The notes beneath the pieces are model-generated. The model saw only the letters and a list, made by a program, of their open reading frames with translations, had not been told where the DNA came from and ran no database searches. DNA of 64,000 bases, taken from the NCBI GenBank assembly GCA_039585235.1, contig JBDGWG010000001.1, positions 1,022-65,021 of the forward strand. The letters run 5' to 3'. The translations under genes were made by a program, and so were the position numbers. This document shows, piece after piece, positions 1,938-50,416 of the stretch (position 1 is its first letter; the number at the start of each line of letters is the position of its first letter). This DNA is from Gemmatimonadota bacterium. GTDB taxonomy: Bacteria; Gemmatimonadota; Gemmatimonadetes; Palauibacterales; Palauibacteraceae.

Positions 1938-2389
1938 CAGGTCCTCTTGCTCACGACGATCTCGTCACCCCGGACATTGACGTCGAATGCGTCGAGCGGC
2001 CGCGGAGGAGGACCCTGAATGTTGCGTCCCGTCAGATCGAAATGGCCGTTGTGGCACGCGCACCAGATGTGCGAGATGTCGTCACGGAACTGCACGGTGC
2101 AGTCCAGGTGGGTGCACACGGCGGAGAACGCGCGCAACTCACCGGACTCGGTGCGCACCAGGATGCCGGGCTTGTTGCCGAAGCGGAACGCCTTCGCCGA
2201 GTTGAGACCGATCTCGTCCGGGCCGAACGGGAGAGCGACGCTCGAGGCGGACGACTCTCCCGCCTCGGGCGGGATGAGGTAGCGCGTCACGGGATACAGC
2301 ATGGCCACCGCGAAACTCCCGGCGCTGGTTCCCAGCAGCCAGTTCACGAAGGCCCGGCGCGACGACTTTGGCGAATCCGTCCCGGCCAT
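1937..2389 (-). CDS. petA: Rieske [2Fe-2S] iron-sulfur protein with Tat signal
   Basis: Canonical box I CTHLDC and box II CACHNGH. N-terminus [20 protein letters not shown] is a twin-arginine signal/TM anchor. The upstream 144 aa of the listed ORF is R/G-rich low complexity, so the start is taken at the internal ATG, giving about 150 aa. Confidence 0.85.
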
Positions 2390-2421
2390 GCGATTTCTCC
2401 CGTCTGACTCAGGCTCGCGGC

Positions 2422-3675
2422 TCACGTCGGTCGCTCGATTTCCCGGATCTTGAGCACCAGGCCTACGATCAGTGCTCCGATTATGATCACCGACACCGCG
2501 AGGCCCATACGGCGAATCTGAAGATCCCGGAGAGCCTCGTGCCCGCTGGCCAGGGCCTCCCCCGATATCTCCATTCCCGGCTCCACTGCCTCCCGCACGG
2601 CCTCCACGTCGAAGGCGTGGATCGCCGCCCTCGATTTCACCAGCGCGCTCTGCCCGTCGTTGAGGCTGACCAGTGCCTCGCTCACTTCCATGCCCGAATC
2701 CTCGGCATGGAGCAACACGGCGCGAGCCGTGTCGAGTCCCACCCTCAAGCCATCGATCAGGTTGCGCATCTCGAGTGCCACCGTGCCCCCGGCATCCGCC
2801 TCGCGGTGGCACTTCGAGCACACGGAGGCCTCCCCGACGCCCAGCATCTCGTCTCCCGCCGGCTCCACGTCATGGTTCTGGTGGCAAACGGCGCAGCCGG
2901 GCACCCCCAGCATGGTGAAGGTCTCCGAGTGGTGGCTCTCCTCGAAGTAGTCGGCCATTACGACGTGACACTGCCCGCACACGTTGCCGACCCAGGAAAC
3001 CCCGGGCGGCGCCGCGCCGTGATTCCCGTGGCAGTCGTTGCACGTGGGCGCGGACGTGTCACCCCCCTCACTCATCGTCTCCCAGTGGACGCTGCGTCGG
3101 TATTCCGCGCCCTGGTCCGTCGGGATGCCGTAGGGCTCCATGTGAGCCGGGTCCGAGTGACAGCCCTCGCACGTGTCCGCCACGTTGAGCGGGTGGACCG
3201 CGGAACGGGGGTCCGAGGCCGGACGGATGCCGTGCGCCCCGTGGCAGCTGGCGCACGTGGCGACGGCCGTATCGGCCGCGCCGAGCAGTCGCTGCCCGTG
3301 AACGGATGTGACGTACTCCGCCACCTGGTCGACCCGGAGCGCCGGGTCGTATTGCCGCATGAAACCGGCATTCGAGTGACAGCGGCCGCAAACATCCGGT
3401 ACCTGTTCGGGCGAGGGCCGGCCGATATAGCCCTTCGCCAAGTCCATGGCGGCCGGACCCTGGACGGTGGGGTCACCACCGTGGCAAGCCGCACACCCGA
3501 ATCCCGCCTCCGCGTGCACGTCTTCAGCGAAGGCCGCTGCGGGCTCGCCCAGTCGGCCGGAGAGCATCTCGTGACACGAAATGCAACTGTCCGTTCCCTC
3601 CTGGGCTGCCGAGTGATCCGGCGAGGCCAGAATCGCCACCATCACCAAGGCGATCGCGCCGCTGCGTAGGTTCAT
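2422..3675 (-). CDS. Nonaheme c-type cytochrome with signal peptide and C-terminal TM anchor
   Basis: Nine CXXCH motifs (CISCH, CAACH, CGRCH, CASCH, CEGCH, CNDCH, CGQCH, CAVCH, CSKCH). N-terminal signal AILASPDHSAAQ and C-terminal helix GLAVSVIIIGALIVGLVL. Sits directly upstream of the Rieske/cytochrome b genes, in the position of cytochrome c1. Confidence 0.85.
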   Translation of the reverse strand: MNLRSGAIALVMVAILASPDHSAAQEGTDSCISCHEMLSGRLGEPAAAFAEDVHAEAGFGCAACHGGDPTVQGPAAMDLAKGYIGRPSPEQVPDVCGRCHSNAGFMRQYDPALRVDQVAEYVTSVHGQRLLGAADTAVATCASCHGAHGIRPASDPRSAVHPLNVADTCEGCHSDPAHMEPYGIPTDQGAEYRRSVHWETMSEGGDTSAPTCNDCHGNHGAAPPGVSWVGNVCGQCHVVMADYFEESHHSETFTMLGVPGCAVCHQNHDVEPAGDEMLGVGEASVCSKCHREADAGGTVALEMRNLIDGLRVGLDTARAVLLHAEDSGMEVSEALVSLNDGQSALVKSRAAIHAFDVEAVREAVEPGMEISGEALASGHEALRDLQIRRMGLAVSVIIIGALIVGLVLKIREIERPT

Positions 3676-4889
3676 GGAGCGCTCGCTTGGAAGAAAGCCA
3701 TGAGATCTCCTATCTCACGACCGGTGAACGAAGGCCATTCAGCGCCAGATCTCTCTTCAGCCTCGAACAGGGCGAGGTGGTTCCACAGGGCGGCCGTAAT
3801 GGACGACGGATGATCCAGGCCCGGGATCGACGTCAGTTCGCCCGGGCCGTGGCAGTCCGTGCAACCCTTGCTGTCCATCAGGGTCCGGCCCCTGCTCGCT
3901 CGACCGCCGGCTGAGAAATAGTCCACGGAATACAGATAGGCGACGATGTTGGCGAAGTCCTGCGCCTCCAGGCGGGGGAACTCCAGGTCTCTCGCCCGCA
4001 GGGCCCCCACCATGGCCGGCGCCTTGTTCCACATCAGGGCCACGAATTCGACCAGGCTTGTGCCCCGGCTCAACCCCGCCAGATCGCGCGCGACACGTCC
4101 TCCCGCACCGGGGTCCCCATGGCACTCGGCGCATCTCTTATCCTCGACCACCCGCACCCCCGCGTCGGCATCACCGGGAAGGACGTAGAGGTTCTCGCCC
4201 GGGGTCTCACCGGTCGTGGATCTGAGAAAGGCGATCAGGTCAGTCAGGTCGTGACTGCTCATCACGGGTCGTGAGATGCCTCTGACCTCCGCTGCTTCGA
4301 TCATCGCCGGACCGTGGTTCCACATGGCGGCAGCGATCTCGATCGGCACGCCCCGCGCGCCGACGTGATCCAGAACAGGCCCCACGACTCCACCGACGCC
4401 TCGGACCTGGTGACACAGGATGCAGTTCATCTCGGTGAAGCGACGCTTTCCTCGTTCCGGATCCCCCGGAGTGTCGAAATACCCCAGCGTGTAGAGGTAC
4501 GCGAACAGATCGCCGGCCTCGCGCTCACTCAGGTGGGGTCTCTCGATTCCGAGCTCCGCCATGTGCCGGTTCATGTCCGGCAGGTGGTTCCACAGGGCCG
4601 CGGTGAGTTCCTGGAAGGTCCGGGGGGAGGCGATCGTCCGCAGGTCGGGCCCCAGAGACTGGCCGCTGCCGCTGACCGAGTGGCAGCGGATGCACCCCTT
4701 CTCCCCGAACACTTCGGCACCGGCCACGGCGTTCTGAGTAGGCGCGGGCAGGTCCTGGGCCACCAGAAAGCGCGCGCCCGGCACGGAGCCGGCCGCGAGG
4801 GCCAGAACGACATGCAACAATCGCCATGAGGATCGCGTTGCGCTGTGCACTGTGTCCTGTCTGCGACGATTGTGAGCGTTGCAGGCCAA
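3672..4889 (-). CDS. Four-domain class I cytochrome c (4 x monoheme domains)
   Basis: Four ~95-aa repeats, each with one CXXCH (CIRCH, CILCH, CAECH, CTDCH) followed by a conserved (M/L)WNH/K..P motif, plus an N-terminal signal. Stop/start overlaps the downstream gene by 4 nt. Confidence 0.8.
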   Translation of the reverse strand: MACNAHNRRRQDTVHSATRSSWRLLHVVLALAAGSVPGARFLVAQDLPAPTQNAVAGAEVFGEKGCIRCHSVSGSGQSLGPDLRTIASPRTFQELTAALWNHLPDMNRHMAELGIERPHLSEREAGDLFAYLYTLGYFDTPGDPERGKRRFTEMNCILCHQVRGVGGVVGPVLDHVGARGVPIEIAAAMWNHGPAMIEAAEVRGISRPVMSSHDLTDLIAFLRSTTGETPGENLYVLPGDADAGVRVVEDKRCAECHGDPGAGGRVARDLAGLSRGTSLVEFVALMWNKAPAMVGALRARDLEFPRLEAQDFANIVAYLYSVDYFSAGGRASRGRTLMDSKGCTDCHGPGELTSIPGLDHPSSITAALWNHLALFEAEERSGAEWPSFTGREIGDLMAFFQASAP

Positions 4890-4984: not shown

Positions 4985-5932
4985 TCAGTATCCGGTGTGG
5001 CAGATAGCGCACGACTGAGTGCTGCGGTCGGCGGCCCGCTCGGGATCGAAGTCCGGTCCGTGCGGATTCACGCGCCAGCCGGCCTTGGCCGAGTGACAGG
5101 CCAGACACTCGGTCTGCTGGTGGCAGGTAGTACAACTCTCCATGCCCTGCCGCGCCGCCACACCGTGCTGTTGAAGCCAGTTCGCTACGCCGTCGTGGTA
5201 CCCCCCGTTCTGGCGCCCGTTCTGCGCGACGCCCTGCGTGGAGTGGCAATCACGGCAGAAGACCTCCCGCGAGTGGCATTCGGCGCACTCCATCGGAGCG
5301 GCCCACGATTCCGCGCTGTGCCGCGTGACGAAGTTCGCCGGATGGTATTGAAAGTCAGAGTTCTTCGGTCCATCGTGACAGTCGACGCAGAACGTCTCCT
5401 TGTGGCATTGCGTGCAATTCGGGAGTCCCGCCGCTGCCGCGGTCGCGTGCTGCGTCTTGAAGTCGGGCGTATGTCCGGGCCCCGGATCGTAGTGACAGGT
5501 CTCGCACGGGTTGATTCCGACCTCGAAGTGGTCGGTCGCGCCGTTACCGTGACAGGCAAGGCATGTGTCACCCGAGGCTGCCTGGACGGCCATATCGCTT
5601 TCCGCCTCAGGGACGCCGTGACAGGTCTGGCACCCGAGCTTGGGGTGCGTGGCATGCTCGAACTTCAGGCCGCTTTCCTGTGGAGTGTATCCCTCCCAGT
5701 CCACCTCGACGACCATCTGACCGTTGTGACAGCCGGCGCACAGCGCCGGGTCCGCCGACACGTTCTGTGCCGCGTCTCCAGAGTAGATGCCCGCGTGGCA
5801 GCTCTCGCACCCGGCAGCTCCAAGCACCGCGTGCTTCTCGTGCGGAAACTCGAACGCTAAATGGGAGGCCGCGAGCAGCGCTCCGGCGCCGACCGTGAGA
5901 ACGAGGGCGCTCAGATAAGCGAGCCGCCTCAT
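4985..5932 (-). CDS. Dodecaheme periplasmic c-type cytochrome (MtrA/OmaB-like heme density)
   Basis: Twelve CXXCH in 315 aa (~26 aa per heme), with a signal peptide (MRRLAYLSALVLTVGAGALLAAS) and no lipobox. Its ATG overlaps the stop of the upstream beta-barrel gene at 5929-5932 (ATGA-type overlap). Confidence 0.85.
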   Translation of the reverse strand: MRRLAYLSALVLTVGAGALLAASHLAFEFPHEKHAVLGAAGCESCHAGIYSGDAAQNVSADPALCAGCHNGQMVVEVDWEGYTPQESGLKFEHATHPKLGCQTCHGVPEAESDMAVQAASGDTCLACHGNGATDHFEVGINPCETCHYDPGPGHTPDFKTQHATAAAAGLPNCTQCHKETFCVDCHDGPKNSDFQYHPANFVTRHSAESWAAPMECAECHSREVFCRDCHSTQGVAQNGRQNGGYHDGVANWLQQHGVAARQGMESCTTCHQQTECLACHSAKAGWRVNPHGPDFDPERAADRSTQSCAICHTGY

Positions 5933-7383
5933 CGGGTACCTCCAGTGTTGAAGCGCCAGCGCAGGCCGACCGTGGCGCGTCCTTCGCTCCAGGTGTCGGC
6001 AAGCGGCCGGTTCTTGTCTTCGATGCGGTAGAAGCCGAGGCTAGCGTCCAGCGTGAGATTCGCCTTGGCGATGTCATAAGCGCCCTCGACCGCGCCGCCC
6101 GTCACATAGCGCTCACCCTCGCGGAACTCGTACAGGGTCTCGGTCGAGGTTCCCCGAAGCGCCACATAGGAGGCGCCGGTCGGTCCGAGATAGCGCCCGA
6201 AGATCAGGTCGCCGCCGTATCGCGAGCCTCCGAATCCTTCTTCGGCCCTGTAGCGCGCGTCCACGTACCACTTGTCCGGGCTCCAGTAGACGCGACCGAA
6301 CCCACGCCAGCCGTCCTTCTTGACGGTCGTGTTGGCTGGACCCGCATTCGTGTCCTCGTACTCGCGGTACGCTCCGCCCGCTTCCACGAGGAGGGGCAGG
6401 TTTCTCGAAGTCCATGTCCCTGAAAGGCGCGCCTCGTTGAACCCGATGGGTGAGAATGCGCTCCAGATGGTCCAGTAATCGAAGAACGGAGTGTAATGAC
6501 GGCCCTGGGCGGCGAACCGGATTCCGAGGACCTGAGGAGTCGTGATTCGAAGCCGCGCGTCATTGATGTTGTCGAACGCGAAGTCGTAGCTCGCGGCGCC
6601 GTCGAACGCCCAGCCACCGACGAGCGCCCGCAGATCGACTGCGGCTCTCTCCGTATACAGGGCCAGGCGGTCCGTGCGAAGTTCCCTCTGGTAGGTCGCT
6701 GATCCCGAAAACACTTTTCCGCCGCGGAAGCCGAGCTCTCCTCCGAACAGCAGGCCGCGCCGGTCGGTGGCCAGGAGGTCCGACTCCGTGTACAGGCTGC
6801 CGTTGCGGGGAGCGTTAACGCCGCGGGCCAGGCTCCAACCGCCATATGCGTCAACCCACAACCAGCCGAGCCCGCGCCAGATGATCGACGCGCCGTCGAA
6901 GTTGTAGTAGCCGAGGCCTGAGGCCCGGTACATCCGTCCGGCTTTCACCTGGTAGGCTGCCCGATTGAAGCTCAGGTAGCCGGTCAGCAGGTCGAATTCC
7001 TGGTCCGTGCGTGGCCACAGCTCGTCGCTCCCGAAGCGCGTGCGCATCTGTCCGTGGAATGACAGGCCCTGCACCCCTGTCCAGCCGGCGAATCGCAGGT
7101 CCTGCGTGAACGGCATGATGTCCTGGCGCTGGCCTTTGTTCTCGTACCAGCGGCAGAAGTCGCCTTCGACGCACGATACTACCGTCCCGTCCGCGAGCTG
7201 GCGCTGGAGACCCGATCCAGAGACGTCTCCCTCGGGAACCGAATCCTGCTCGAACGGCTGGAGCTGCATCCAGCCCCAGTTGAGTCTGACGTCGCCGCGC
7301 ACGCCCTGGGCCTGGGCCTCTGACGGCAGCCACACCACGGCGCACGCGACTAACAAGAAGAACGGCCGGCGATGGACAGTCAT
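5929..7383 (-). CDS. Outer-membrane beta-barrel protein (putative porin partner of multiheme cytochrome)
   Basis: 484 aa with a signal peptide (FFLLVACAVVWLPSEAQAQG). Composition is Gly/Tyr/Trp/Arg-rich with alternating amphipathic strand patterns (YRASGLGYYNFDGASIIWRGLGWLWVDAYGGW) and no hydrophobic helices. Translationally coupled to the dodecaheme cytochrome. Confidence 0.6.
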   Translation of the reverse strand: MTVHRRPFFLLVACAVVWLPSEAQAQGVRGDVRLNWGWMQLQPFEQDSVPEGDVSGSGLQRQLADGTVVSCVEGDFCRWYENKGQRQDIMPFTQDLRFAGWTGVQGLSFHGQMRTRFGSDELWPRTDQEFDLLTGYLSFNRAAYQVKAGRMYRASGLGYYNFDGASIIWRGLGWLWVDAYGGWSLARGVNAPRNGSLYTESDLLATDRRGLLFGGELGFRGGKVFSGSATYQRELRTDRLALYTERAAVDLRALVGGWAFDGAASYDFAFDNINDARLRITTPQVLGIRFAAQGRHYTPFFDYWTIWSAFSPIGFNEARLSGTWTSRNLPLLVEAGGAYREYEDTNAGPANTTVKKDGWRGFGRVYWSPDKWYVDARYRAEEGFGGSRYGGDLIFGRYLGPTGASYVALRGTSTETLYEFREGERYVTGGAVEGAYDIAKANLTLDASLGFYRIEDKNRPLADTWSEGRATVGLRWRFNTGGTR

Positions 7384-7530: not shown

Positions 7531-10425
7531 CTAGCGGTAGCCGATTAACGCCGAGTAGACGATGTGGAGAACCAGGAATATTCCGATCCCGAGCATCGTG
7601 AACCCCACGACCCCGAAGATCAACTCCACTCGGCGTGGGTACGGTGGCACGAGGCGCTCTTCGAACTCTCCTGAAGCCACCATGCGTTCGTATTCCCTCG
7701 GCTTGTCCCTCTTCAGCTCCTCCACGGGTACGCGCCCCGTGAAGATCACCGGATCCATAGGGAACTTGTCGAGCCGGAAGTGAGTGTTGAAGAAGTGGAT
7801 CGTGAAGATGAACGCCACGGCCAGCAGCGCCTCATCGCTGTGGATGATGGTCGCCACATTCACCAGCCAACCCGGCAGGATGATCGTGAACAGCTCGGGG
7901 AACCAGAGCAGAAGGCCCGTGGAGCCAATCACGAACATCCCCCAGAACACGGCGAAGTAGTCGAACTTCTCCCAATAGGTGTATCGTCCGTAGTCCGGCC
8001 GGGGTCCCCAGCCCATGAACCACCTCACGGAGGCCCTAAACTCCCGGACGTCCGTCTTGTTGAACACGAGCGAGTCGCGCGACGTGATGAACTGGAGCCA
8101 CGTCTGACCGGCGCGGATTCTCTGCTTGCGCGCGTCGAACAGATGGACGAAGAACACCGAGAACAGCGCGATGGCGCCGATCCTGTGCCACACCCCCATG
8201 GCCTCGTAGCCGCCGAGCAGCCAGGCGAGCGTCTGGGCCCATCCCATATACGAGAACTTCAGGGCCATGCCCGTCAGGGCGAGGAGCATGAAGCTGACCA
8301 TCATGACGCCGTGCATCGATCTCTGGAACTTCGTGAAGCGTCGGTACTGCAGCGGTGGATCCGCTCCTTCCTCTGCCGCCACCGGCTCGTGTTTCCAGTC
8401 CTCCGGCGATCGCCACAGGCGCCACAGCCAGGCGAAGGTGTGAATACTGGCGAAGGTCAGAGTCCCGATCAGAAGGCTCGCCATGAACCAGAAGGTCCAG
8501 AACAGCCAGGGGTATTGCTCCGGGTCGTGGTGCGTTGCGTGCGTCAGATACCCCGTGAAACGCCGGTTCGCCCCCGGATGGCACTGAGCGCATGTCTCGA
8601 CGATGTTCCGGCGACTGAGGGTCGACGCCGGTTCCGTCGTGGGGAGGACGTTGTGCGTGCCGTGGCAATCGTAGCACTTGGCCGCGGTGGCCGCCCCGGC
8701 TCTGGACACCTTCCCGTGGTACGTATCGAAGAAGGTCTCTGATTCGTCCTCGTGGCACCTTCCACACTGGCTCATCATCAGCATGCGAAAGTCGTCGCGA
8801 TCCGTACGGCTGATCGTGTGCGACGTGTGGCAATCCTCGCACGTCGGGTAGTTGTGATCCCCCCCTCCGTTGGCGAAGTCGCCGTCTTCGGGCCAGTGCA
8901 CGCTTTCGCGGAACTGCTCTTCGATCCCGTGGTGACACTCGCCGCACGTCCCGGCGACGTTGTTCGGATTGATCGTAGAGGCGGCTTCCCCGGCGGGCAG
9001 CTCCGTGTGCGCCCCGTGACAGTCGGTGCAGGTCGCCGTGACTACGAGTCCGCTCTGGAGCAGTCCCTTGCCGTGGATGCTCATCTCGTAGCCCTGGACG
9101 ATATCGGCTCCGGTGCGCTCAATCCGCCGCGCCGCCGGTTCTCCCGCCATATGGCACCGGGAGCACAGGTCCGGAACGTTGCGCGGATAGATCGGCGAGG
9201 ATGGATTCGTTTGCTCGAACTCCGCGTGGCGCTCGTGGCAGTCGCCGCACGTGGGCGCGTCTGCGTCGCCTTGAGCCGCCAGCGTTCCGTGCATGCTGGA
9301 GCCGAATTCCTCTATCTGCACCGGGTGGCAGATGGCACAGTCAACCTCGGGCTCGATCGCCTCACACGGCCGTTCCTCGTAGATCGGTGTCACGTCGACG
9401 TGACACTGGGAGCACCCCGTCTCGGCATGCCCGGACTCGGCCCTCACCGACTGGTCTACGAAGAGGGATCGCTGCACCCCCCCCTCCTCTTCGACCACCA
9501 ACTCGGGGTCTCCGTGGCATTCCAGGCAGTCCTGTGTCGCGACCCCGGCGTCGTAGAACACGCGGCGGATCTTGTGCGGTTGATGGCAATCCACGCAGGG
9601 CGGGATTTTGTGCGGCTCTTCCTCCCACAGGCGTCCCTCGATGGCCTGCAGGTGAACCTCCTCGATCCTGCCGTGGCACTGCATGCACGTTCCGGCCACG
9701 TTCTCGGCGTGGATGCTGGATCGGTCGTCGGTGTGGGGAAGGATGAAGTGCGATGTGTGACAGGACGTGCAGACGGCCGTGACCGTCAGTCCCTGCTGGA
9801 ACAGTCCCGCCCCATGAATGGAAAGAGAGTAGTTCTCCAGGATCCGGTCCTGGGGGATGTCGAGTCTCTCCGACACCTCCGTACCTTCCTGGTGGCACTC
9901 GCCGCACAGGAAGGGGATGTTCATCACCGACGTGGACGAGGCCGGATCGCGGGAGGAGCGTACGTCATGTGTGCCGTGGCAGGTCGCACACGAGGGCGCG
10001 AGCGGGTCGCGCCGCGCGGCTGCCTGCCCGTGCAGGGACTGGTTGTGTTCAGCCCGCTGCGTGCCATGACACCGACCGCAGGTCGCGGGCGCCCGGTCTT
10101 CCGGGTGCGGGAACGTGAGGCCCTCGTGACAGTCCACACACCGCAGGCGGCCGTGGATCGAAGCGTCCAGCGTCTCACGTGTGACCACGAATCGGTCGCC
10201 GTCATCCCGGCTTTCCCAGAAAGCAGGGTTCGCGTGGCACATGAGGCAGTCGACTTCCTGTGCCTCCACTCGGTCCGGGAGGAGAGCGACCAGCCCGATC
10301 GCCAGGGCGATCCCGATCGTGCCTCGATATGCGGTCAGAGTCCGCAAGTCCATCGGATCTCCGGATATGTGGTATGTGTGAGTTCGTTTCCTTGGCCCGG
10401 ACACACCGCGACGCTCGACCGGCAA
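7531..10425 (-). CDS. Fusion protein: ~19-heme c-type cytochrome domain + C-terminal dihaem cytochrome b (HydC/FdnI-like) membrane domain
   Basis: About 19 CXXCH in the first ~630 aa. The C-terminal ~330 aa has 4-5 TM helices with conserved His (WHRIGAIALFSVFFVHLF; IIHSDEALLAVAFIFTIHFF), typical of membrane cytochrome b of the formate dehydrogenase/hydrogenase gamma family. The start may be the internal ATG at 10353 (MDLRTLTAYRGTIGIALAIGLVALL). Confidence 0.85.
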   Translation of the reverse strand: MPVERRGVSGPRKRTHTYHISGDPMDLRTLTAYRGTIGIALAIGLVALLPDRVEAQEVDCLMCHANPAFWESRDDGDRFVVTRETLDASIHGRLRCVDCHEGLTFPHPEDRAPATCGRCHGTQRAEHNQSLHGQAAARRDPLAPSCATCHGTHDVRSSRDPASSTSVMNIPFLCGECHQEGTEVSERLDIPQDRILENYSLSIHGAGLFQQGLTVTAVCTSCHTSHFILPHTDDRSSIHAENVAGTCMQCHGRIEEVHLQAIEGRLWEEEPHKIPPCVDCHQPHKIRRVFYDAGVATQDCLECHGDPELVVEEEGGVQRSLFVDQSVRAESGHAETGCSQCHVDVTPIYEERPCEAIEPEVDCAICHPVQIEEFGSSMHGTLAAQGDADAPTCGDCHERHAEFEQTNPSSPIYPRNVPDLCSRCHMAGEPAARRIERTGADIVQGYEMSIHGKGLLQSGLVVTATCTDCHGAHTELPAGEAASTINPNNVAGTCGECHHGIEEQFRESVHWPEDGDFANGGGDHNYPTCEDCHTSHTISRTDRDDFRMLMMSQCGRCHEDESETFFDTYHGKVSRAGAATAAKCYDCHGTHNVLPTTEPASTLSRRNIVETCAQCHPGANRRFTGYLTHATHHDPEQYPWLFWTFWFMASLLIGTLTFASIHTFAWLWRLWRSPEDWKHEPVAAEEGADPPLQYRRFTKFQRSMHGVMMVSFMLLALTGMALKFSYMGWAQTLAWLLGGYEAMGVWHRIGAIALFSVFFVHLFDARKQRIRAGQTWLQFITSRDSLVFNKTDVREFRASVRWFMGWGPRPDYGRYTYWEKFDYFAVFWGMFVIGSTGLLLWFPELFTIILPGWLVNVATIIHSDEALLAVAFIFTIHFFNTHFRLDKFPMDPVIFTGRVPVEELKRDKPREYERMVASGEFEERLVPPYPRRVELIFGVVGFTMLGIGIFLVLHIVYSALIGYR

Positions 10426-10462
10426 GTGCGTCCGCCTCCTTCACTGCAAGAAGCGGACACAA

Positions 10463-10502
10463 GTGTATCTTTCTATAAAATGTTGGTATGATAGCAAGTT
10501 AC
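10463..10502 (-). promoter_or_regulatory. AT-rich island in the 115-bp gap upstream of the 964-aa cytochrome gene; candidate promoter
   Basis: gtgtatctttctataaaatgttggtatgatagcaagttac is ~75% AT in an otherwise ~70% GC context. Contains TATGAT/TATAAA-like hexamers and lies in the only sizeable intergenic gap (10426-10540) inside the cytochrome array. Confidence 0.35.
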
Positions 10503-10540
10503 GACGGAGGACCCGGAGTCGAGTCCTCCGCCACGATGGG

Positions 10541-12520
10541 TCAAGATGTCACATGTTCGGTGGGTGCGTCCGCTTCCCCGGACTCGGTCGCCACTTTGTC
10601 TTCGTGCCCTGAAAGGCCGTTCTGCGCGTCATCACCGCCCGCGAGCTCCTCGTCATACCAGCGGCCGTGCACCGCCCTGGCCTCATGCTCGGGCATCTTC
10701 CCCGTCAGCCAGATCCAGCTCATCGGATAGACCTCGGGGTGGAACAGCACGAAGAAGAAGTGCCACACCACGATGGCCAGCGTGGCCAGCCAAGCCTCAT
10801 AGAAGTGGATGGTTTCAGAAATGGACACGATCCACGTGGGGAACAGCCCGGTGGCCCAGGAGGGGAACCACAGGACCACACCGGTGAGCGCCATGAGAAC
10901 CGTACCCCACACCAGCGCCCAGTACTCCGCCTTCTGGGTGTAATCGTACCGTCCGAATCGAGCCCGATGCGGGGAGCGCCACGTGTAGAAGCGCATGTTG
11001 TCGACGAATTCCTTCGCGTCCCTGACGTTAGGCGTCATCGCCTGGAACTCTTCCCTGCCGCGTTTCATGAACATGATGTACAGAACGTGGACGATCCCGA
11101 ATAAGATCAACCCGACGCCCAGCACGCGGTGCAGGGTCGATCGCACGGGTTCCGCCAGATAGGCGAGGCCCGTCACTCGCGCCCAGCCAGCTTCCGGGTA
11201 CCGGAGGGCGAATCCTGTGACGACCAGCAGGATGAAGGATGTGGCCAGCATGGCGTGCTGCGCGATCTGGATCCGGTCGAAGCGCAGGAAGCCTCGCTCG
11301 GCTCCATCCCGCCGCCGCTTCTCGACCATGTAGTAATTGAAAATGATCGCGTTGTGGATCGCCATTCCTCCGATGACGACCGCAATCAACGCGATATAGA
11401 TCGCGCGCACGATCCGCCGGCCCTTGTTCGTCGCGATCGAGGCTGCCCGATGGTCCCCTTCGTGACATTGCCGGCACGTGGCCACCACGTTGCCTTCCGC
11501 GACCGACGACTCCGGGTCGTCTGCCGGGAGCACGAAGTGGGTCGTGTGGCAGCTCACGCACGTGGCCGAGGTCTGACTGGCCCGCCGAGTCGCCCACCCG
11601 TGGTAGCTGTCGCTGTAGGAGAGGACAACCTCCTCCTGCAGACTGTACTTGGTGATGATCACGGGGTCGTTATGGCAATCGCCGCACAGCTGGGCAGCAA
11701 GATGCCCGGAGTGCGTACCGGCGTCGGGGTTGGCCGGATGCAGAATGAGGTGCTCGCCGTGACAGTCCGTGCACGTGGGGCTGTCGCTCACGCCCGCCGC
11801 CACCGCCCTGCCGTGGATCGAGCGGTCGTAGATCTCCGTGATGTTCCCGTGACACGCCCCGCACGTCGCCGACACGTTCCGCCGGTTGATCCTGGACTCG
11901 GGGTCTGAGTGACCCCTGAGATCGTGGACGCCATGACAGTCCGTGCAAGTGGCGGCCTCCGAGGGGCCGTTTCCATTCGCGGTCCCGTGCACGGAGCGGG
12001 CGTACTGCAGAGCCGGCGCCGGCAACTTCAGGTACTGATCGGTCAGCAGGCCACCCGTGCTGTGACACTCCGTGCACGTCTCGGCCACCCGCGCGTGGTA
12101 CGTGTGCGACTCCGGGTCGGTGCTCCGACGAATGTCGTGCGCCCCGTGGCAACCGGCACACGTCGGAGCCCGCGGGTTGCCGCGCTCCAGTGCGTACCCG
12201 TGCACGCTACCGGAATACTCTCGGCCTTCCCCGCCGTGGCACCCGCCGCAGCGAACCGGGGTGTACTCCTCGGGGTGGGGGTAGTTGAAGGCCTGGTGAC
12301 AGGTGATACAGGACATTCCGAAGCCGCCGTGCACCGAGCCGGCGAACTCTTCCTGCGTGACGACGAGGCGGGCGGAGTCTGCCCGTCCGGCGAAGTTGGC
12401 GGTATCTCCGTGGCAGGCGAGACAGAAACGGTTCTCCTGCGCGGAGAGACTGGTGGCGAATATGGCAACGCCAAGACCGGCCACCAGAATACGGGCTGGA
12501 TGGGGCCAATGGCTCAACAT
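10541..12520 (-). CDS. Fusion protein: 11-heme c-type cytochrome domain + C-terminal dihaem cytochrome b membrane domain (CbcL-like architecture)
   Basis: Signal peptide, eleven CXXCH in the N-terminal ~350 aa, then a ~300-aa polytopic domain with conserved His in TM helices (IAQHAMLATSFILLVVTGFAL; LHRVLGVGLILFGIVHVLYIMF; ETIHFYEAWLATLAIVVWHFFF). A paralogous architecture to 7531-10425. Confidence 0.85.
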   Translation of the reverse strand: MLSHWPHPARILVAGLGVAIFATSLSAQENRFCLACHGDTANFAGRADSARLVVTQEEFAGSVHGGFGMSCITCHQAFNYPHPEEYTPVRCGGCHGGEGREYSGSVHGYALERGNPRAPTCAGCHGAHDIRRSTDPESHTYHARVAETCTECHSTGGLLTDQYLKLPAPALQYARSVHGTANGNGPSEAATCTDCHGVHDLRGHSDPESRINRRNVSATCGACHGNITEIYDRSIHGRAVAAGVSDSPTCTDCHGEHLILHPANPDAGTHSGHLAAQLCGDCHNDPVIITKYSLQEEVVLSYSDSYHGWATRRASQTSATCVSCHTTHFVLPADDPESSVAEGNVVATCRQCHEGDHRAASIATNKGRRIVRAIYIALIAVVIGGMAIHNAIIFNYYMVEKRRRDGAERGFLRFDRIQIAQHAMLATSFILLVVTGFALRYPEAGWARVTGLAYLAEPVRSTLHRVLGVGLILFGIVHVLYIMFMKRGREEFQAMTPNVRDAKEFVDNMRFYTWRSPHRARFGRYDYTQKAEYWALVWGTVLMALTGVVLWFPSWATGLFPTWIVSISETIHFYEAWLATLAIVVWHFFFVLFHPEVYPMSWIWLTGKMPEHEARAVHGRWYDEELAGGDDAQNGLSGHEDKVATESGEADAPTEHVTS

Positions 12521-12735
12521 ATGGTGCCGCGTCCCTATTTGTGGTGGAGCGAGGGGGCTCCGGGCGGGAAACGCAGCACCATTCGTGCCGCGACGACGGC
12601 TCGCCGACCCGCTGCCTGGCGCGGAGATGCGAGCGAGGTGAAGTGCCTGCGTCAGAGCAAGTTACGGGAAGGCAGCCCCGAGTTTGGCAGGGCGGTCAGC
12701 GCAGGCCGCTCCGCCGGCTACGCCCAGAGGCCGGC

Positions 12736-14703
12736 CTATTGTCCCAGCGCCGGGACCTCATGGCACATCTCGCACGCTACCGGGGCGTTGTGCTCCACCC
12801 GGTCGGCATGGCACACCGTGCACACGTTGCGCGACCAGGCGGCCACGCCTTCGATTGCCTCACCGTGGCAGACGGCGCATCCCTGGTGAGCCCCGACGGG
12901 ATGGATCTGCAGGACGCCTCCCCGATGGCAGCTCAGGCACGTGGCTTCCGGCTGATGATGAGCGCCGTGACAGTTCTCGCACACATCAGCGCTCGGTGAG
13001 CCCGGGCTGTCGCCGTGGCACGTGGCGCACGCGAATCCGAGGGCCACGTGTGTCGGGTGAGGGAAATCTCCCGTGGCAGTGGTAATCGTGCCAGTCGGAG
13101 CGCGGGCGCCGCCCGCGTGGCACCGTTCGCACCCGATGGCTCCGCTGTGGTGACAGTCGGAGCACGCCGCCCGCGAGCCGAGAGCCATCCCGCCGTGCTC
13201 CTCCAGGCCCGTGTGACAGGCCGAGCACGGGAGGTTCGCCTCCTTCACATGCGGCTGATGCGAGAAGCGCGTACCCTGCCACACGCCTTCCTGGCGATCC
13301 ACGCCCAGGTGGCAGCCCAAACATGCGTTCTCCGCAACCGGTGTGCCGAGGCTCACCGTGGGCGGACGGTAGTCAAGACCGCCGCTTCGGGCGGCCCGAT
13401 CCACGTACTCCACGACCGCGCGCAGAAGCGCATCCGCATACCCTATGTTGTGTGCGCTCTGTCCCACCGAGACGAGTTCGACGTTGTCGGCCGCCAGGGC
13501 CAGCAAGCTGTCGGCCGTGGCGCGCTGCGCGAAAGAGCCGGTCCGGGGTGCCGAGGAGGCCGCTCGCACGATCGACGACACTCGCTTCAGCTTGCCGTCC
13601 ATCTCCGCCTGCCACGACGGCAGGATGTTGGCGTACTTGGTCCCGTGGCACGCCAGACAAGTAGCCTCCCCCGCCGCCTGGACCTGTTCGTGACCGGCGA
13701 TTTCACGTGGGAGGCCGTGGCAGCTCCCGCACGAGACACGGGCCTCGTACATGGCGCTCGGATCGTCCTCGGCGCCATGGCCTCCCGTGCCAGTGTACAG
13801 GTTGCGTTGCGCTGCGTGCGTACCCTGGTGGCAGGCCGTGCAGTCGAGCTCGAACGTGTCGGCGTGTGAGACCACCTCGTGCGCGATCGGCCGGTGACAC
13901 AGCTGACACTCCACGTTGTGCTCCCCGAGGTGCACCTCGTGCACAAGGGTCGCATCCGCGAACAGGGCGACCCTCTCCGGCTCGTTGTGACACCCGAAGC
14001 ACCGATCCTGCTCGGCCGCCCCGTCGCCCGACGTCACGCGGTCGTGACACGAGATGCACGATACCATGTCCCGCACGTACTGCGGATGATCGATCACGCC
14101 CGTCGCAGTGGTGATGAGCGGCGGTTCCACGTGGCAGCCCGTGCACCCGGCGATGGGCTCGCCTTCAGGGCGTCCCCGAAAGTGGCACAGAAAGCAGGTG
14201 CTCTTCGTGACCGCGACGTGATCTCCCTGCACGATCTGCGAGTGGCAGCTCGTGCACCGAAGCTGCTTGCCGCGCCGATGTGCAATCAGGTGATGCCGAT
14301 GGTCGAAGCGGACGCCGAGGAAAGTGAGCTCGCCCTCGATCTTGCGTGTCGAGTGGCACCCCGAACGCAGACACGCCGCATCCTCGATCTCGGCCCATGG
14401 CTTCGTCCCGTAGGTGCCCGTGACGTACTTCACGACCTGGTTGGCCGCCTGCATCTTTCCCATCGCCTCGGCCTTGATCCCGGGGGCGTAATGGCACTTG
14501 ATGCAGGGCACATCCTGGTGAGTGGAGGTCGTCCACGAATCGTAGTAAGGCTGCATGTTGTGGCAGTTCTTACAGAAACTGGGCCGCGCCGCGTACTCGA
14601 TGAACCCTACGGTCCCGAGCCCGGCCAACAGGATGAGGAGAATGATCCCCTGGACGACTACTCGAAGCAATCGCCTCCGCTTCTCGGGGTCGTGGCGGGT
14701 CAT
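12736..14703 (-). CDS. NapC/NirT/NrfH-family membrane quinol dehydrogenase module fused to a ~21-22-heme cytochrome c domain
   Basis: N-terminal TM (LLRVVVQGIILLILLAGLGTVGF) followed by the NrfH/NapC signature PSFCKNCHNMQPYYDSWTTSTHQDVPCIKCHY. The remaining ~580 aa carry ~19 more CXXCH plus one CX4CH (CLRSGCH). The internal ATG at 14703 is chosen as start (MTRHDPEKRRRLL) because it overlaps the TGA of the upstream gene as ATGA; the ORF track extends to 14799. Confidence 0.85.
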   Translation of the reverse strand: MTRHDPEKRRRLLRVVVQGIILLILLAGLGTVGFIEYAARPSFCKNCHNMQPYYDSWTTSTHQDVPCIKCHYAPGIKAEAMGKMQAANQVVKYVTGTYGTKPWAEIEDAACLRSGCHSTRKIEGELTFLGVRFDHRHHLIAHRRGKQLRCTSCHSQIVQGDHVAVTKSTCFLCHFRGRPEGEPIAGCTGCHVEPPLITTATGVIDHPQYVRDMVSCISCHDRVTSGDGAAEQDRCFGCHNEPERVALFADATLVHEVHLGEHNVECQLCHRPIAHEVVSHADTFELDCTACHQGTHAAQRNLYTGTGGHGAEDDPSAMYEARVSCGSCHGLPREIAGHEQVQAAGEATCLACHGTKYANILPSWQAEMDGKLKRVSSIVRAASSAPRTGSFAQRATADSLLALAADNVELVSVGQSAHNIGYADALLRAVVEYVDRAARSGGLDYRPPTVSLGTPVAENACLGCHLGVDRQEGVWQGTRFSHQPHVKEANLPCSACHTGLEEHGGMALGSRAACSDCHHSGAIGCERCHAGGARAPTGTITTATGDFPHPTHVALGFACATCHGDSPGSPSADVCENCHGAHHQPEATCLSCHRGGVLQIHPVGAHQGCAVCHGEAIEGVAAWSRNVCTVCHADRVEHNAPVACEMCHEVPALGQ

Positions 14704-16016
14704 CCTGCCACCCGGCTCGGATCCGAGCCCGGTTCGGTGCCCCGGAGACGCCACAGCCGGGAGCCGGCCAATACGATCGTGGCGAGCGCCAGGAACCACA
14801 CGGGGATGAGGAAGAGCTTGTGCTCCCAGCGCTCCTCGGCACTCACCTCGGCCTCCGCGACGATGTCACGCGAGATGGAGCCGACGACTCGCTCGAGGTC
14901 CTCGAGCCGCTCCAGATCCAGCGCGTGCTGCGCCGACGCCAGCTGCCGGTATTGAGTGAGGGCCGTGCGATAACGGAACCGCGTATCGCTGACCTCGTGC
15001 CCGGCCCGCACCAGCTCGTGGATCGCCTCCGCGGCCGCATCCATCTCCCGCTCGGCGCGCACGAGGATCTTCTCGATTTCCTCGCCCAGCACGGCGGGCG
15101 CGCTCGCCGGGGCGTGGCAGCCGGTGCACGTCGTGGCCACCAGATCCGGTGGGATTCGCTCCGTAAGGTGACTGCTGTGGCACGCCGTGCAGCCGAGAAG
15201 GACCCCCTCGGCCGTGGCCCTTCCGTGTGGCCCTTCATCGAGGGCCTTTCTCGTTCCGACGTGACACCGGCCGCACACGTTCGAGATCTCGCTCACATTC
15301 GGGGGCAGGGCCGCGTGAGACCCGTGGCACCCGATGCAGCTCGGCGCCGCGAAATTCAGATCCTCGAACAGGGCTGCGCCGTGCGCGCTCCGTCGGTGGC
15401 TGCGGACCTGATCCGTGGGGATGCCGTACGGTTCCATCAAGGCGTCGTCCTCGTGGCATACGGCGCACAAGGTCGGGATATTCAGAGGGTACGCACTGCT
15501 GCGAGCGTCGTCCGCTCGAAGCGTGGTGTGCGGATCGTGGCAGTCAGAGCACGTGGGGGCGTCCTCACTGCCTCGTTCCAGGAGGAGCATGCCATGTCGG
15601 CTGGTGCGCAGCTCGGCGATCTGGTCTGCGGGAAGACCGTACTGACGCATCGCGTCGGGATCAGCGTGACAGCTGGAGCACACCTCGACCGTAGCCAGCT
15701 TGCCCAGAGACCCGCGGAAGTCACCGCCGTGCGCCCCGGGAATCTCGAACGAGTCCGGGTCTCCTCCGTGACAGTCGTGGCACCGGACGTTTCTGTCGGA
15801 GTGCACTCCGAGCAGATACGCCCTCCTCTTGTCCGCGTGACAGATGAGGCAGCCGTACTGCGGGTCGATCCCGCCGGCTTCCTGCGGGACGGCCTCGCCA
15901 GAAACGACGTGCGCGCTGACGGACGCCTCTACCATGGGTGCGCGATCGAAGCCGGTAGCCGAAAAGATGCCTGCCATGACGAGGACAAAGCCGGCCTTCT
16001 TGAGCGTCGCGCTCAT
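14700..16016 (-). CDS. Nonaheme c-type cytochrome with C-terminal TM anchor (paralog of 2422-3675)
   Basis: Nine CXXCH (CLICH, CHDCH, CSSCH, CSDCH, CAVCH, CIGCH, CGRCH, CTACH, CTGCH). C-terminal helix LFLIPVWFLALATIVLAG. Blocks are collinear with the 417-aa nonaheme protein (e.g. EPYGIPTDQ conserved in both). Start overlaps the stop of the cytochrome b gene (16013-16016). Confidence 0.85.
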   Translation of the reverse strand: MSATLKKAGFVLVMAGIFSATGFDRAPMVEASVSAHVVSGEAVPQEAGGIDPQYGCLICHADKRRAYLLGVHSDRNVRCHDCHGGDPDSFEIPGAHGGDFRGSLGKLATVEVCSSCHADPDAMRQYGLPADQIAELRTSRHGMLLLERGSEDAPTCSDCHDPHTTLRADDARSSAYPLNIPTLCAVCHEDDALMEPYGIPTDQVRSHRRSAHGAALFEDLNFAAPSCIGCHGSHAALPPNVSEISNVCGRCHVGTRKALDEGPHGRATAEGVLLGCTACHSSHLTERIPPDLVATTCTGCHAPASAPAVLGEEIEKILVRAEREMDAAAEAIHELVRAGHEVSDTRFRYRTALTQYRQLASAQHALDLERLEDLERVVGSISRDIVAEAEVSAEERWEHKLFLIPVWFLALATIVLAGSRLWRLRGTEPGSDPSRVAG

Positions 16017-17278
16017 TCTCCGGGACCCTCCTCCCCCGCCTCGGCTTCCGCCGCTTCACCCTCAGCCTCATCGACCGGTTCTGACGAGGGCGGCGCAGGG
16101 ATGGCCCTTTCCTCCAGGATGCGGGACTCGACCCCGGCGCTCGGTGTGACCGAATCGACGCGGCTGCCGAGCGCCCAGAACACGAGAAAACCGAGGAAGA
16201 AAGCCAGACCGATCGCCGCCGCCACAGGACGCTTGCGCAAGGCAGCCGCACTGCCCCGGTCGACGAGCGGGAGAAGCACGAGCATCATGCCGAGCGCCGA
16301 GAAGCCAACGAAGCCCCACACCCCCAGGTAACGGATCAACCCGAGCGACACGTCGACCACGATCCACGTCGACACCAGCTCTCCCGGGAGCTCGAACGGA
16401 GTTGCTGGGTCTCCGACGGGCCGTGGGAACAGCGCGGCGAGCGAGATCGCAATGGCCAGTACGAGGGCGCTCACGATCACGATGCGCAGAAGATGGTTGG
16501 GGAAGAACGGCACGCCCCCTCCATCCCGTTCGGCGAAGCCCGGTGGTGGGGCGACCCCGTGCTTGCGGACCACCACGAAGTGCAGCACCAGGAGTCCGAA
16601 TACGAACCAGGGCAGCACGATTACGTGCAGCGCGAAGAAGCGGCTCAGCGTTGCGCCGGACACGAACACGTCACCCGTCAGGAAGCTGGCTGCTGCTCCC
16701 CCGATCAGTGGTGCGGAGCGCGCGACATCCATCACCTCGGTAGTCGTCCAGTAGGCCCACTGGTCCCAAGGGAGGAGGTAACCCGTCGCCCCAAAGGCCA
16801 GCACGCCGAACAGGAGCAGGACGCCCACCAGCCAGCTCGTCTCCCTCGGCGGCTTGTAGGCGCCGGCGAAGAAGACGCGGGCCATGTGCGCCATGAGCGC
16901 CACGACGATCAGGTTGGCCGACCACACGTGCAGGTCGCGCAACAGCCACCCGAAGGGGACCTCCGTCGCGATGTACTGTATGCTATGGTAGGCCTCGTCG
17001 ACGGACGGACGGTAGTAGAAGGAGAGCAGAACCCCCGAAGCGACGAGGACCATGAACAGAAGATACGCGACTCCACCGAACGCGTGTTTCCAACTCACAT
17101 ATGAGGGCAGACGTCGGCTCCAGGCCTCACGCAACGCTTCGTCGATGGGAAGGCTTCGGTCGATCCGTCCGTACAGGAGGCCGACCAGCCGGAGGCCGGC
17201 GAGCAGGCTTGCGTCCGTGCTCTCCTTGATGTCGGCTCCGATCTGTCTGAGCCAGGTGCGCCCCCGTTTCTCTGCCAT
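16013..17278 (-). CDS. petB: Cytochrome b (second bc-type complex)
   Basis: 421 aa, polytopic, with the conserved His quartet (LHVWSANLIVVALMAHMARVFF; FALHVIVLPWFVFGLLVLHFVVV) and a Glu/Ala-rich acidic C-terminal tail. Confidence 0.9.
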   Translation of the reverse strand: MAEKRGRTWLRQIGADIKESTDASLLAGLRLVGLLYGRIDRSLPIDEALREAWSRRLPSYVSWKHAFGGVAYLLFMVLVASGVLLSFYYRPSVDEAYHSIQYIATEVPFGWLLRDLHVWSANLIVVALMAHMARVFFAGAYKPPRETSWLVGVLLLFGVLAFGATGYLLPWDQWAYWTTTEVMDVARSAPLIGGAAASFLTGDVFVSGATLSRFFALHVIVLPWFVFGLLVLHFVVVRKHGVAPPPGFAERDGGGVPFFPNHLLRIVIVSALVLAIAISLAALFPRPVGDPATPFELPGELVSTWIVVDVSLGLIRYLGVWGFVGFSALGMMLVLLPLVDRGSAAALRKRPVAAAIGLAFFLGFLVFWALGSRVDSVTPSAGVESRILEERAIPAPPSSEPVDEAEGEAAEAEAGEEGPGE

Positions 17279-17287
17279 GTCCTTACC

Positions 17288-17740
17288 TCAGTCCCGCGTC
17301 ACGTATACGGCGCCGTCCCTCACGAAGACGTCGTAGCGCTGAAGCGGCTCGGTCGTAAGGCCCTCGACCGCCTGGCCGCGAAGGTTGTACAACATGTGCC
17401 CGCAAGGTGAGGTCACGCGCATGGCCGCGGCGTCCCACTCGAGTAGGCACCCGTCCACTGGAGATGCCCCCTGGAGCGCCGCAAAATTGCTCTCACCGCT
17501 CCGCACCACGAGGATGGCCTGCTCCCCCCAGCTTGCCATGCGGCTGCTGCCTACGGTGAAGTCCTCGGCGCGCGCCACCCGGACTGCTACCTCGCGCTGT
17601 GCTATGATCAAGTGCTCCGGGGGGACGGTGTAGATCGCCGCGATCGCCGCCGCGATCAGGAACACGACGCCGAGTACGGCATTCAACAAGAACGTGCCGA
17701 AGTCGCGCTTGCGACCCGGTTCCGAGTGCTCTGGAGACAT
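17288..17740 (-). CDS. Rieske-fold protein with degenerate [2Fe-2S] ligand boxes, TM-anchored
   Basis: 151 aa from the internal ATG at 17740 (MSPEHSEPGRKRDFGTFLLNAVLGVVFLIAAAIAAIY...). The C-terminal half aligns with the canonical Rieske at 1937-2389, but box I reads SPVDGC (canonical CTHLDC) and box II reads SPCGHM (canonical CACHNGH), so two or three of the four cluster ligands are missing. Sits immediately upstream of the cytochrome b gene, as petA does. Confidence 0.55.
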   Translation of the reverse strand: MSPEHSEPGRKRDFGTFLLNAVLGVVFLIAAAIAAIYTVPPEHLIIAQREVAVRVARAEDFTVGSSRMASWGEQAILVVRSGESNFAALQGASPVDGCLLEWDAAAMRVTSPCGHMLYNLRGQAVEGLTTEPLQRYDVFVRDGAVYVTRD

Positions 17741-46979: not shown

Positions 46980-47004
46980 GTCGTCTCTATACGTCCGGTT
47001 ACGA

Positions 47005-49035: not shown

Positions 49036-49041
49036 GCGCCG

Positions 49042-49497: not shown

Positions 49498-49532
49498 GTG
49501 ACGGATTGTCCCTTGCTATATGAATCGGCGAG

Positions 49533-50415: not shown

Positions 50416-50416
50416 T

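Follow-up and report, generated by a model that had tools for sequence, protein, structure and literature searches.

What are two neighbouring genes, each of which fuses a large multiheme cytochrome c domain to a cytochrome b membrane domain, doing in a Gemmatimonadota genome, and with which partners might their products exchange electrons? The pair, here called A (transcriptionally upstream) and B (downstream), lies adjacent on the minus strand of a 64,000-nucleotide stretch of contig JBDGWG010000001.1 (assembly GCA_039585235.1), which we refer to as the window. We suggest that A and B are ancient paralogs among the CbcL/MtrH/MtoC inner-membrane bc-cytochromes, and that they are likely to serve as quinol:cytochrome gates of extracellular electron transfer.

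Two intact cytochrome c/b fusions

A first-pass annotation of this DNA had described two tandem c/b fusion proteins with 19 and 11 hemes, and motif counts and single reading frames agree with it. There are 11 CXXCH motifs in A and 19 in B, against residue-shuffle means of 0.04 and 0.10; these motifs hold 22 of the 22 cysteines of A and 38 of the 39 of B, and overlapping open reading frames (ORFs) in other frames of the region contain no CXXCH. Both products begin with a hydrophobic, signal-like segment that runs to a cleavage-like site (SLSA before QE in A, VEA before QE in B), as expected of the signal peptides claimed earlier, and the exported multiheme domain of each has enough non-motif histidines for bis-His ligation. 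The mechanical ORF of B spans 7531-10425 and opens with TTG at 10425, but the ATG at 10353 is the most likely start of B (giving 940 amino acids, aa), because its orthologs are called at 939-941 aa.

The C-terminal parts of both proteins, for which a Pfam search had been suggested, match PF01292 (Ni_hydr_CYTB, 'prokaryotic cytochrome b561') above its curated cut-off of 30.1 (A, aa 413-597, E 9e-20, 71.6 bits; B, E 2e-10, 41.3 bits). Homologs of A number more than 4288, and 114 of 119 full-length close matches carry 11 hemes. B is represented in at least 120 clusters with identities of 58% and above; among the 117 longer than 880 aa, 112 have 19 hemes. Close B-type proteins are 58-88% identical to B and nearly all of those with a named source are from Gemmatimonadota; A-type proteins at 50-55% identity come from Gemmatimonadota, Acidobacteriota and Planctomycetota.

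Might the fusions be artefacts, produced when an error of sequencing or assembly merged distinct c and b genes, or else decaying pseudogenes? We give this a negligible chance. The c and b parts of A, and likewise those of B, form one unbroken reading frame; each protein has same-length orthologs in over 100 independent clusters, and full-length ones are found in hundreds of independent assemblies, closed chromosomes included; the heme motifs and the heme b histidines are invariant; and G+C content at third codon positions is 0.82 for both genes, comparable to that of their neighbours. The split gene or assembly error envisaged in the first-pass annotation is thus already refuted, and we regard both fusions as real.

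Membership of the CbcL/MtrH/MtoC family

A profile of the b domains of A and B retrieved 2962 proteins at E <= 1e-3 from 1.84 billion representatives searched. The best 150 of these matches include several 9-heme proteins of 615-654 aa with CbcL spacing (E 1e-56 to 1e-69). One protein of CbcL length and heme layout, P0409 (spacing 23,25,24,26,28,31,40,28), is colinear with A over 533 residues at 29% identity (E 2e-54), with the heme b histidines in register. Among 92 diverse members, which are full-length representatives of 50%-identity clusters with heme counts of 3-22, the commonest count is 11 (31 proteins), followed by 9 (15) and 7 (10); 19 hemes occur in four clusters and 22 in one.

These layouts correspond to those of a published survey of the CbcL/MtrH/MtoC family (Zhong & Shi, Front Microbiol 2018, PMC6295460), which covered 15 phyla including Gemmatimonadetes, with lengths of 416-1034 aa, 3-23 CX2CH motifs and, in most members, six predicted transmembrane (TM) helices with conserved histidines. 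Its Table S2 includes a Gemmatimonadetes protein, MAF27600.1 (951 aa, 19 CX2CH, six TM helices; spacing 37,23,30,28,45,28,30,23,36,24,30,28,45,28,32,25,30,28), whose heme spacing is nearly identical to that of B and which shares with it 19 hemes and six TM helices. The 19-heme layout is also tabulated there for Bacteroidetes, Marinilabiliales and Handelsmanbacteria, and 11-heme layouts resembling A for Opitutus, Lacunisphaera and Planctomycetes; Oter_2603 of Opitutus terrae, for example, has 11 hemes with a spacing (37,21,30,28,44,28,30,25,34,28) similar to that of A. CbcL itself (GSU0274) is given as 619 aa with nine motifs at 34, 57, 82, 105, 129, 158, 186, 229 and 257 (PMC6295460).

It is therefore well supported, by comparison of sequences, that A and B belong to this family of inner-membrane bc-cytochromes, and the proposal that they are CbcL-type c/b fusions is borne out by PF01292, by an FdnI-like b domain (below), by published-family layouts and by the matches of CbcL layout. 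The suggestion that 19 hemes make B unusually large fares less well: given the family range and the tabulated 19-heme Gemmatimonadetes member, the protein is large but not unusual. The architecture, including its Gemmatimonadota 19-heme form, has been in the literature since 2018, and A and B are ordinary additional members. The proteins themselves add little, and the interest lies in their genomic context: the survey, which dealt with different species, says nothing of A and B in tandem, of a barrel partner or of the octaheme duplication discussed below. It also reported three conserved histidines, where we find four to be invariant.

The membrane domain

Among sequences of solved structure, the best match to the membrane domain is E. 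coli FdnI (1kqf_C). A phmmer alignment places H422, H464, H572 and H587 of A on FdnI H18, H57, H155 and H169, which we take to be the ligands of hemes bC and bP in the Fdn-N structure. Histidine fills these four columns without exception in the close homologs (119 A-type and 117 B-type, 236 in all) and in the 92 diverse members, and none of the four is missing on alignment in A or B. An AlphaFold2 model of A has a mean predicted local distance difference test (pLDDT) score of 74, rising to 80-90 in the membrane part, and TM helices at 366-400, 416-440, 457-484, 527-551 and 562-593. When this model was compared with the PDB by Foldseek, FdnI came first (1kqf_C, probability 1.00, target TM-score 0.71) and the cytochrome b of hydrogenase-1 (HyaC) second; the c domain of the full-length model gave no matches, apo multiheme models matching poorly. 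The FdnI/HydC-like b domain with paired conserved histidines that had been proposed is thus upheld by alignment, by fold and by the invariance of all four residues. The 4-5 TM helices assigned with it hold for A, which has five after the heme domain by both hydropathy and AlphaFold2, but not for B, which has six by hydropathy; both numbers fall within the four to six of the family. The first helix, TM0, is a linker: through it the chain passes from the heme domain in the periplasm to the cytoplasmic side, where the FdnI-type bundle begins.

Two further histidines, both lacking in FdnI, are invariant in the 236 close homologs: H389 of A (11353-11355; H638 of B), near the cytoplasmic end of TM0, and H478 of A (11086-11088; H737 of B), on TM2 and 14 residues past the bP ligand. 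The TM0 histidine is kept in 89 of the 92 diverse members and the TM2 histidine in 70, with Tyr, Phe, Gln or other residues in the remaining 22. We considered whether H389 and H478 might ligate a third b heme as a feature of the family, but this is unlikely because H478 is variable across the diverse members and is missing from the CbcL-layout protein P0409. A role for the two residues in a quinone or proton pathway seems more plausible than a third heme.

An octaheme duplication separates B from A

The two proteins differ chiefly in their heme domains. The first octaheme module of B (aa 25-275) matches the second (aa 276-520, hemes 9-16) at 35% identity (E 9e-44), and hemes 1-8 of A match the first module of B at 40% identity (E 2e-55). 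By BLASTP, aa 20-360 of A align with aa 276-600 of B at 34% identity (E 3e-47); in longer alignments A matches B 281-920 at 30% identity, and the N-terminal 370 residues of A align also with B 41-450. Heme spacing repeats in the same way, being 38,20,30,28,43,28,30 and then 29,42,28 in A, and in B 36,20,30,28,45,28,30, then 23, then 38,25,30,28,45,28,35, and finally 25,30,28.

On the strength of this internal identity and repeating spacing, we regard B as a protein like A whose octaheme module has been duplicated in tandem (8+8+3 hemes as against 8+3), and A and B as ancient paralogs that form two separately conserved subfamilies. An 11-/19-heme pair related by so clean a duplication offers a natural test case for the importance of heme-chain length in inner-membrane bc-cytochromes.

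Synteny and distribution

A-type relatives are encoded in 451 GTDB species genomes that match two conserved peptide patterns, of which we kept the best 80. All of these 80 are metagenome-assembled genomes (MAGs), mostly of Gemmatimonadota with some Acidobacteriota and Planctomycetota, and they include 'Ca. Benthicola marisminoris' and 'Ca. Kutchimonas denitrificans'. A B-type gene follows A within 1 kb on the same strand in 26 of the 66 loci with enough downstream sequence; a homolog of the barrel gene that follows B in the window stands directly after B in 20 of the 24 tandem loci with enough further sequence. Judged by these two counts, the link of B to the barrel and 12-heme genes is the more constant one, and A often occurs alone.

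Relatives at ~89% identity are colinear with the window over the entire block. In those at ~63% identity, an inverted trio of NrfC-like (4Fe-4S), NrfD-like and cytochrome c551-like genes lies between A and B (locus L006, 6929-9783; locus L007, 204-2974), which shows the tandem to be made of two separable modules. One contig labelled as an Akkermansiaceae MAG (CAXMRU010000218.1, locus L018) carries an A-B-barrel block of Gemmatimonadota type, with a barrel 84% identical to that of the window; this suggests a mis-binned contig and not a Verrucomicrobiota occurrence.

The surrounding cytochrome cluster

A and B sit within a block of ~20 kb that holds ~97 CXXCH motifs and five quinone-interacting modules, with all genes on the minus strand except one small one (Table 1). 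LeuRS, GyrA, UvrA and a sigma-70 factor are also encoded in the window, which is therefore chromosomal.

Table 1. Features of A, B and the cytochrome cluster (positions in the window)
Feature	Position	Strand	Details
8-heme cytochrome	18522..20006	minus	lipoprotein-like signal (…LAGGC); first cluster gene
Tetraheme cytochrome	17998..18384	plus	128 aa; opposite strand inside cluster
Rieske-like protein	17288..17920	minus	
Cytochrome b	16013..17278	minus	
9-heme cytochrome c	14700..16016	minus	C-terminal TM anchor; downstream of cytochrome b and Rieske-like protein
NapC/NirT-headed multiheme cytochrome	12736..14799	minus	N-terminal TM; 21 CXXCH and one CX4CH; PF03264 E 1e-8, NrfH E 2e-12
Gap 5' of A	12521..12735	minus	215 bp, 71% GC, without AT-rich patch; contains CGTAACTTGCT at 12656-12666
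Gene A	10541..12520	minus	659 aa, CbcL/MtrH/MtoC-type; signal peptide aa 1-27, 11-heme c domain (CXXCH 33-349), 5-TM cytochrome b domain
A membrane domain	10739..11425	minus	aa 366-594; TM0 linker and FdnI-like four-helix bundle; H422, H464, H572, H587; extra His H389, H478
A-B intergenic region	10354..10540	minus	187 bp, 56% GC; hairpin 10506-10529, then AT-rich patch 10462-10501
Gene B	7531..10353	minus	940 aa, CbcL/MtrH/MtoC-type; 19 CXXCH, 6-TM cytochrome b domain
B first octaheme module	9529..10281	minus	aa 25-275, hemes 1-8; extra relative to A; BLASTP matches to B 276-520 and to A hemes 1-8
B second octaheme module and three terminal hemes	8554..9528	minus	aa 276-600, hemes 9-19; colinear with whole A 11-heme domain
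B membrane domain	7567..8520	minus	aa 612-929, by hydropathy; TM0, FdnI-like bundle (H681, H723, H838, H853), extra C-terminal TM 911-929
Predicted outer-membrane beta-barrel protein	5929..7383	minus	484 aa, signal peptide, ~24 strands; AlphaFold2 prediction
12-heme cytochrome c	4985..5932	minus	315 aa, signal peptide, 12 CXXCH; MtrC/MtrF domain II/IV E 7e-11
Class-I cytochrome c	3672..4889	minus	4 CXXCH; cbb3-subunit-III-like domains
Second 9-heme cytochrome	2422..3675	minus	C-terminally anchored
Rieske/PetC	1937..2821	minus	
Cytochrome b	840..1937	minus	

Downstream of B, the start of the 12-heme gene overlaps the stop of the barrel gene by 4 bp. The 484-aa product of the barrel gene is modelled with high confidence by AlphaFold2 as an all-beta protein of ~24 long strands (pLDDT 84.8, predicted template modelling score 0.74) that matches outer-membrane barrels. 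It has 230 detectable homologs, all unnamed and lacking a Pfam domain or NCBIfam model, and those whose source is named are from Gemmatimonadota apart from one from Tepidiformaceae. Homology to MtrB, MtoB or OmbB was not detected by sequence. On this model, it is plausible that the protein is the porin partner of the 12-heme cytochrome in a porin-cytochrome pair. The extracellular role implied in the first-pass annotation finds a fitting neighbourhood here, in that the NapC/NirT protein, the predicted barrel and the 12-heme cytochrome would all suit extracellular electron transfer.

The annotated GTG start of the NapC/NirT cytochrome at 14799 probably overshoots; its real start probably lies near 14703, giving a 4-bp overlap with the upstream gene, because relatives are called at 656 aa. 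Its CX4CH motif (CLRSGCH) is at residue 143. There are two Rieske plus cytochrome b modules (14700-17920 and 840-3675), and beside each is a 9-heme cytochrome c with a membrane anchor at its C terminus; these are apparently bc-type complexes in which a multiheme subunit replaces cytochrome c1. The downstream part of the cluster (840-4889) keeps the same gene order in relatives L001-L004 and L006-L007. The small plus-strand tetraheme cytochrome contains an internal two-fold repeat (HDLEGKDNCxMCHSGAMEGxPA…HEGR) and occupies the same place in relatives (L001, 4113-4499). Elsewhere in the window, a System I cytochrome c maturation operon on the minus strand (45841-51726; CcmA, B, C, F, a thiol-disulfide oxidoreductase and CcmH) adjoins a sigma-70 family gene (44855-45739), and fits the heavy c-heme load of the region.

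Intergenic regions and regulation

It had been proposed that a promoter-like, AT-rich gap precedes the upstream copy alone. Our analysis reverses this: the gap before A is GC-rich, and the AT-rich patch (40 nt, 27.5% GC) precedes B, the downstream gene, and has no conserved counterpart in relatives that are 89% identical (L001). A scan for the sigma-70 consensus found no coding-strand promoter in either gap, and its one match in 16 kb, on the non-coding strand, is at chance level.

Directly 3' of the A stop lies a GC-rich hairpin (RNAfold -25.5 kcal/mol). Eight close relatives (L001, L008-L013, L019) have a hairpin in the corresponding position, with stems that differ but remain complementary through compensatory changes; in some of the eight a T-rich tract follows slightly downstream. 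The hairpin looks like a terminator or an RNA-stabilising element. Its position would allow separate expression of A and B, and would fit a boundary between two transcription units, the first closing with A and the second opening with B.

Just two copies of the 11-mer CGTAACTTGCT are present in the 64-kb window, one 136 nt upstream of the A start and the other, at 10493-10503, 140 nt upstream of the B start. This could be a shared regulatory or promoter element, of shallow conservation: six close relatives retain CGTAAC before A, but it is seldom found before B.

Proposed function and its rivals

We propose that A and B carry electrons between the quinone pool and an extracellular route, as follows. 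In both proteins a Sec signal directs the multiheme c domain, with histidines enough for all its hemes to be bis-His ligated, to the periplasm; TM0 leads the chain back to the cytoplasmic side; and the FdnI/HydC-type bundle provides the histidine ligands for two b hemes, one near each membrane face. A quinone/quinol site would lie near the cytoplasmic-side heme bC, as judged from FdnI and the CbcL literature, and electrons would run from it through heme bC and heme bP into the c-heme chain. Electrons from the quinone pool could thereby reach periplasmic and outer-membrane cytochromes, or flow in reverse, with no need of iron-sulphur (FeS), flavin or molybdopterin subunits. B would head a unit with the Gemmatimonadota-restricted barrel and the 12-heme cytochrome, a porin-cytochrome-like arrangement, and A would end a unit with the Rieske protein, cytochrome b, 9-heme cytochrome and 21-heme NapC/NirT protein.

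Release of protons at the cytoplasmic side has been argued for CbcL by the Bond laboratory (bioRxiv 10.1101/2022.08.31.506072). With a quinone site on that side, quinol oxidation by A or B would likewise leave protons in the cytoplasm while the electrons move outward, in the direction favoured by the membrane potential; such oxidation would conserve little energy but would favour low-potential acceptors.

For a facultatively aerobic sediment bacterium, outward flow, as in metal-oxide reduction, seems somewhat more likely than inward flow. Several points nonetheless weigh against the reading of A and B as outward-directed quinol:cytochrome gates. The tie to G. sulfurreducens CbcL runs through heme layout, a CbcL-layout representative and a published table, and the position of the quinone site in A and B is carried over from FdnI. 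As to the direction of flow, the family includes both CbcL, a quinol oxidase, and MtoC of Fe(II) oxidisers, with no sequence feature that separates oxidases from reductases (PMC6295460). The class-I cytochrome c, with its cbb3-subunit-III-like domains, and the two Rieske/cytochrome b modules would be just as much at home in a pathway that takes up electrons for an oxidase. In the closed genome CP070815.1, B lies beside hydrogenase-maturation genes (hypA-F), with the barrel ~9 kb away; and the relatives in the best 80 of 451 genomes are all uncultured MAGs.

This raises the question of whether A and/or B might instead be MtoC-like quinone reductases, fed through the barrel/12-heme pair with electrons from Fe(II), Mn(II) or other reduced solids outside the cell, with the class-I cytochrome c carrying a downhill branch to an oxidase. 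Besides the shared family and the Rieske/cytochrome b modules just mentioned, such inward flow draws on the fact that FdnI is itself a quinone reductase and on the prediction that related Gemmatimonadota (Palauibacterales) are facultative aerobes (PMC10469786). With an FdnI-type quinone site, however, electrons from a high-potential donor such as Fe(II) would have to travel uphill in redox terms and against the membrane potential, and no genes for Cyc2, MtoA/MtoB or carbon fixation were seen among the larger ORFs of the window that were scanned. We therefore judge inward flow to be unlikely overall, though a serious rival to outward transfer.

It is less likely again that A and B act purely within the periplasm, either as quinol dehydrogenases for soluble reductases (of nitrite, N2O or sulfur compounds) or as a point of electron entry from a periplasmic hydrogenase, with no crossing of the outer membrane. 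The frequent occurrence of A-type genes with neither B nor the barrel (the tandem is missing from 40 of 66 loci), the hypA-F neighbours of B in CP070815.1 and the NrfC/NrfD-like pair between A and B in L006 and L007 could all be taken in this sense. Against them stand the barrel and heme-dense cytochrome placed directly after B in most tandem loci, the overlap of the barrel and 12-heme genes, the lack of structural genes for a periplasmic reductase or hydrogenase in the cluster, and a chain of 11-19 hemes that would be far longer than a soluble periplasmic partner requires. On present evidence we rank outward extracellular transfer as most likely, ahead of inward flow and of a purely periplasmic role.

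The two proteins may also differ in task. The first-pass annotation had proposed that they may be tuned to different redox windows, an idea that mirrors the Geobacter ImcH/CbcL/CbcBA paradigm. A bolder possibility, to which we give a low probability, is that the 19-heme chain of B crosses most of the periplasm and docks directly on the barrel/12-heme pair, forming a hard-wired conduit of ~31 c and 2 b hemes that would work without a soluble shuttle. If this were true, A would serve other partners, namely the NapC/NirT protein and the Rieske/cytochrome b module, and the octaheme duplication would be an adaptation of wire length to the width of the periplasm.

Significance

The window reveals a conserved cluster of ~20 kb and ~97 heme motifs in uncultured marine-sediment Gemmatimonadota related to the PAUC43f/Palauibacterales group. 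This suggests that these abundant, facultatively aerobic sediment bacteria are able to exchange electrons with minerals. An ecogenomic description of a related group does not mention the cytochrome genes of the cluster (PMC10469786), and in the literature on CbcL in Gemmatimonadota and on extracellular electron transfer by Gemmatimonadota we found nothing specific to it. Three features make it of modest interest: the clean octaheme duplication, the conserved link of B to an unannotated, Gemmatimonadota-specific barrel, and the presence of so large a cluster of cytochrome genes in a sediment lineage known only from uncultured members.

Comparison with known systems

CbcL of G. sulfurreducens (GSU0274) resembles A and B in that one chain carries a signal peptide, a periplasmic domain with multiple c hemes and a di-heme b domain of HydC/FdnI type, in lacking FeS, flavin or molybdenum partners, and in being encoded among cytochrome genes. 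It differs in having nine hemes in its 619 aa (spacing 23,25,23,24,29,28,43,28), where A has 11 and B 19 built on an octaheme module, and in a sixth TM helix that is absent from A; identity between CbcL-layout proteins and A or B is only ~29%. The role of CbcL as a low-potential menaquinol oxidase is experimental, whereas any such role of A and B is a prediction.

MtoC and MtrH of Dechloromonas, Gallionella and Rhodoferax are of the same family, share the c/b fusion, and adjoin genes for an outer-membrane conduit (PMC6295460). They have nine hemes in another layout (for example 40,25,48,31,31,25,30,28), and their partners are MtrAB/MtoAB homologs, whereas the barrel in the window has no detectable sequence relation to MtrB. 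In porin-cytochrome conduits (MtrCAB; OmaB-OmbB-OmcB of Geobacter), as in the window, a barrel gene is translationally coupled to that of a heme-dense cytochrome and lies near genes for an inner-membrane quinol dehydrogenase; the barrel family of the window differs in being unannotated, with no Pfam model, and in having ~24 predicted strands where MtrB has 26.

FdnI and HyaC/HydC share with A and B the four-helix core fold and the same four histidine ligands. Scores against the NCBIfam equivalogs are far below their cut-offs (TIGR01583 for FdnI, 56.4 and 38.8 bits against 115.85; TIGR02125 for HydC, 34.9 against 121.5), and the name 'formate dehydrogenase gamma subunit' given to relatives by the Joint Genome Institute (JGI) is therefore a domain-level label only. 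Domain scans of the cluster proteins found no FdnGH or HyaAB. We thus read A and B as relatives of FdnI and HydC and not as subunits of a formate dehydrogenase or hydrogenase: FdnI and HyaC/HydC dock an FeS beta subunit, whereas in A and B an additional TM helix joins the b domain to a fused cytochrome c wire.

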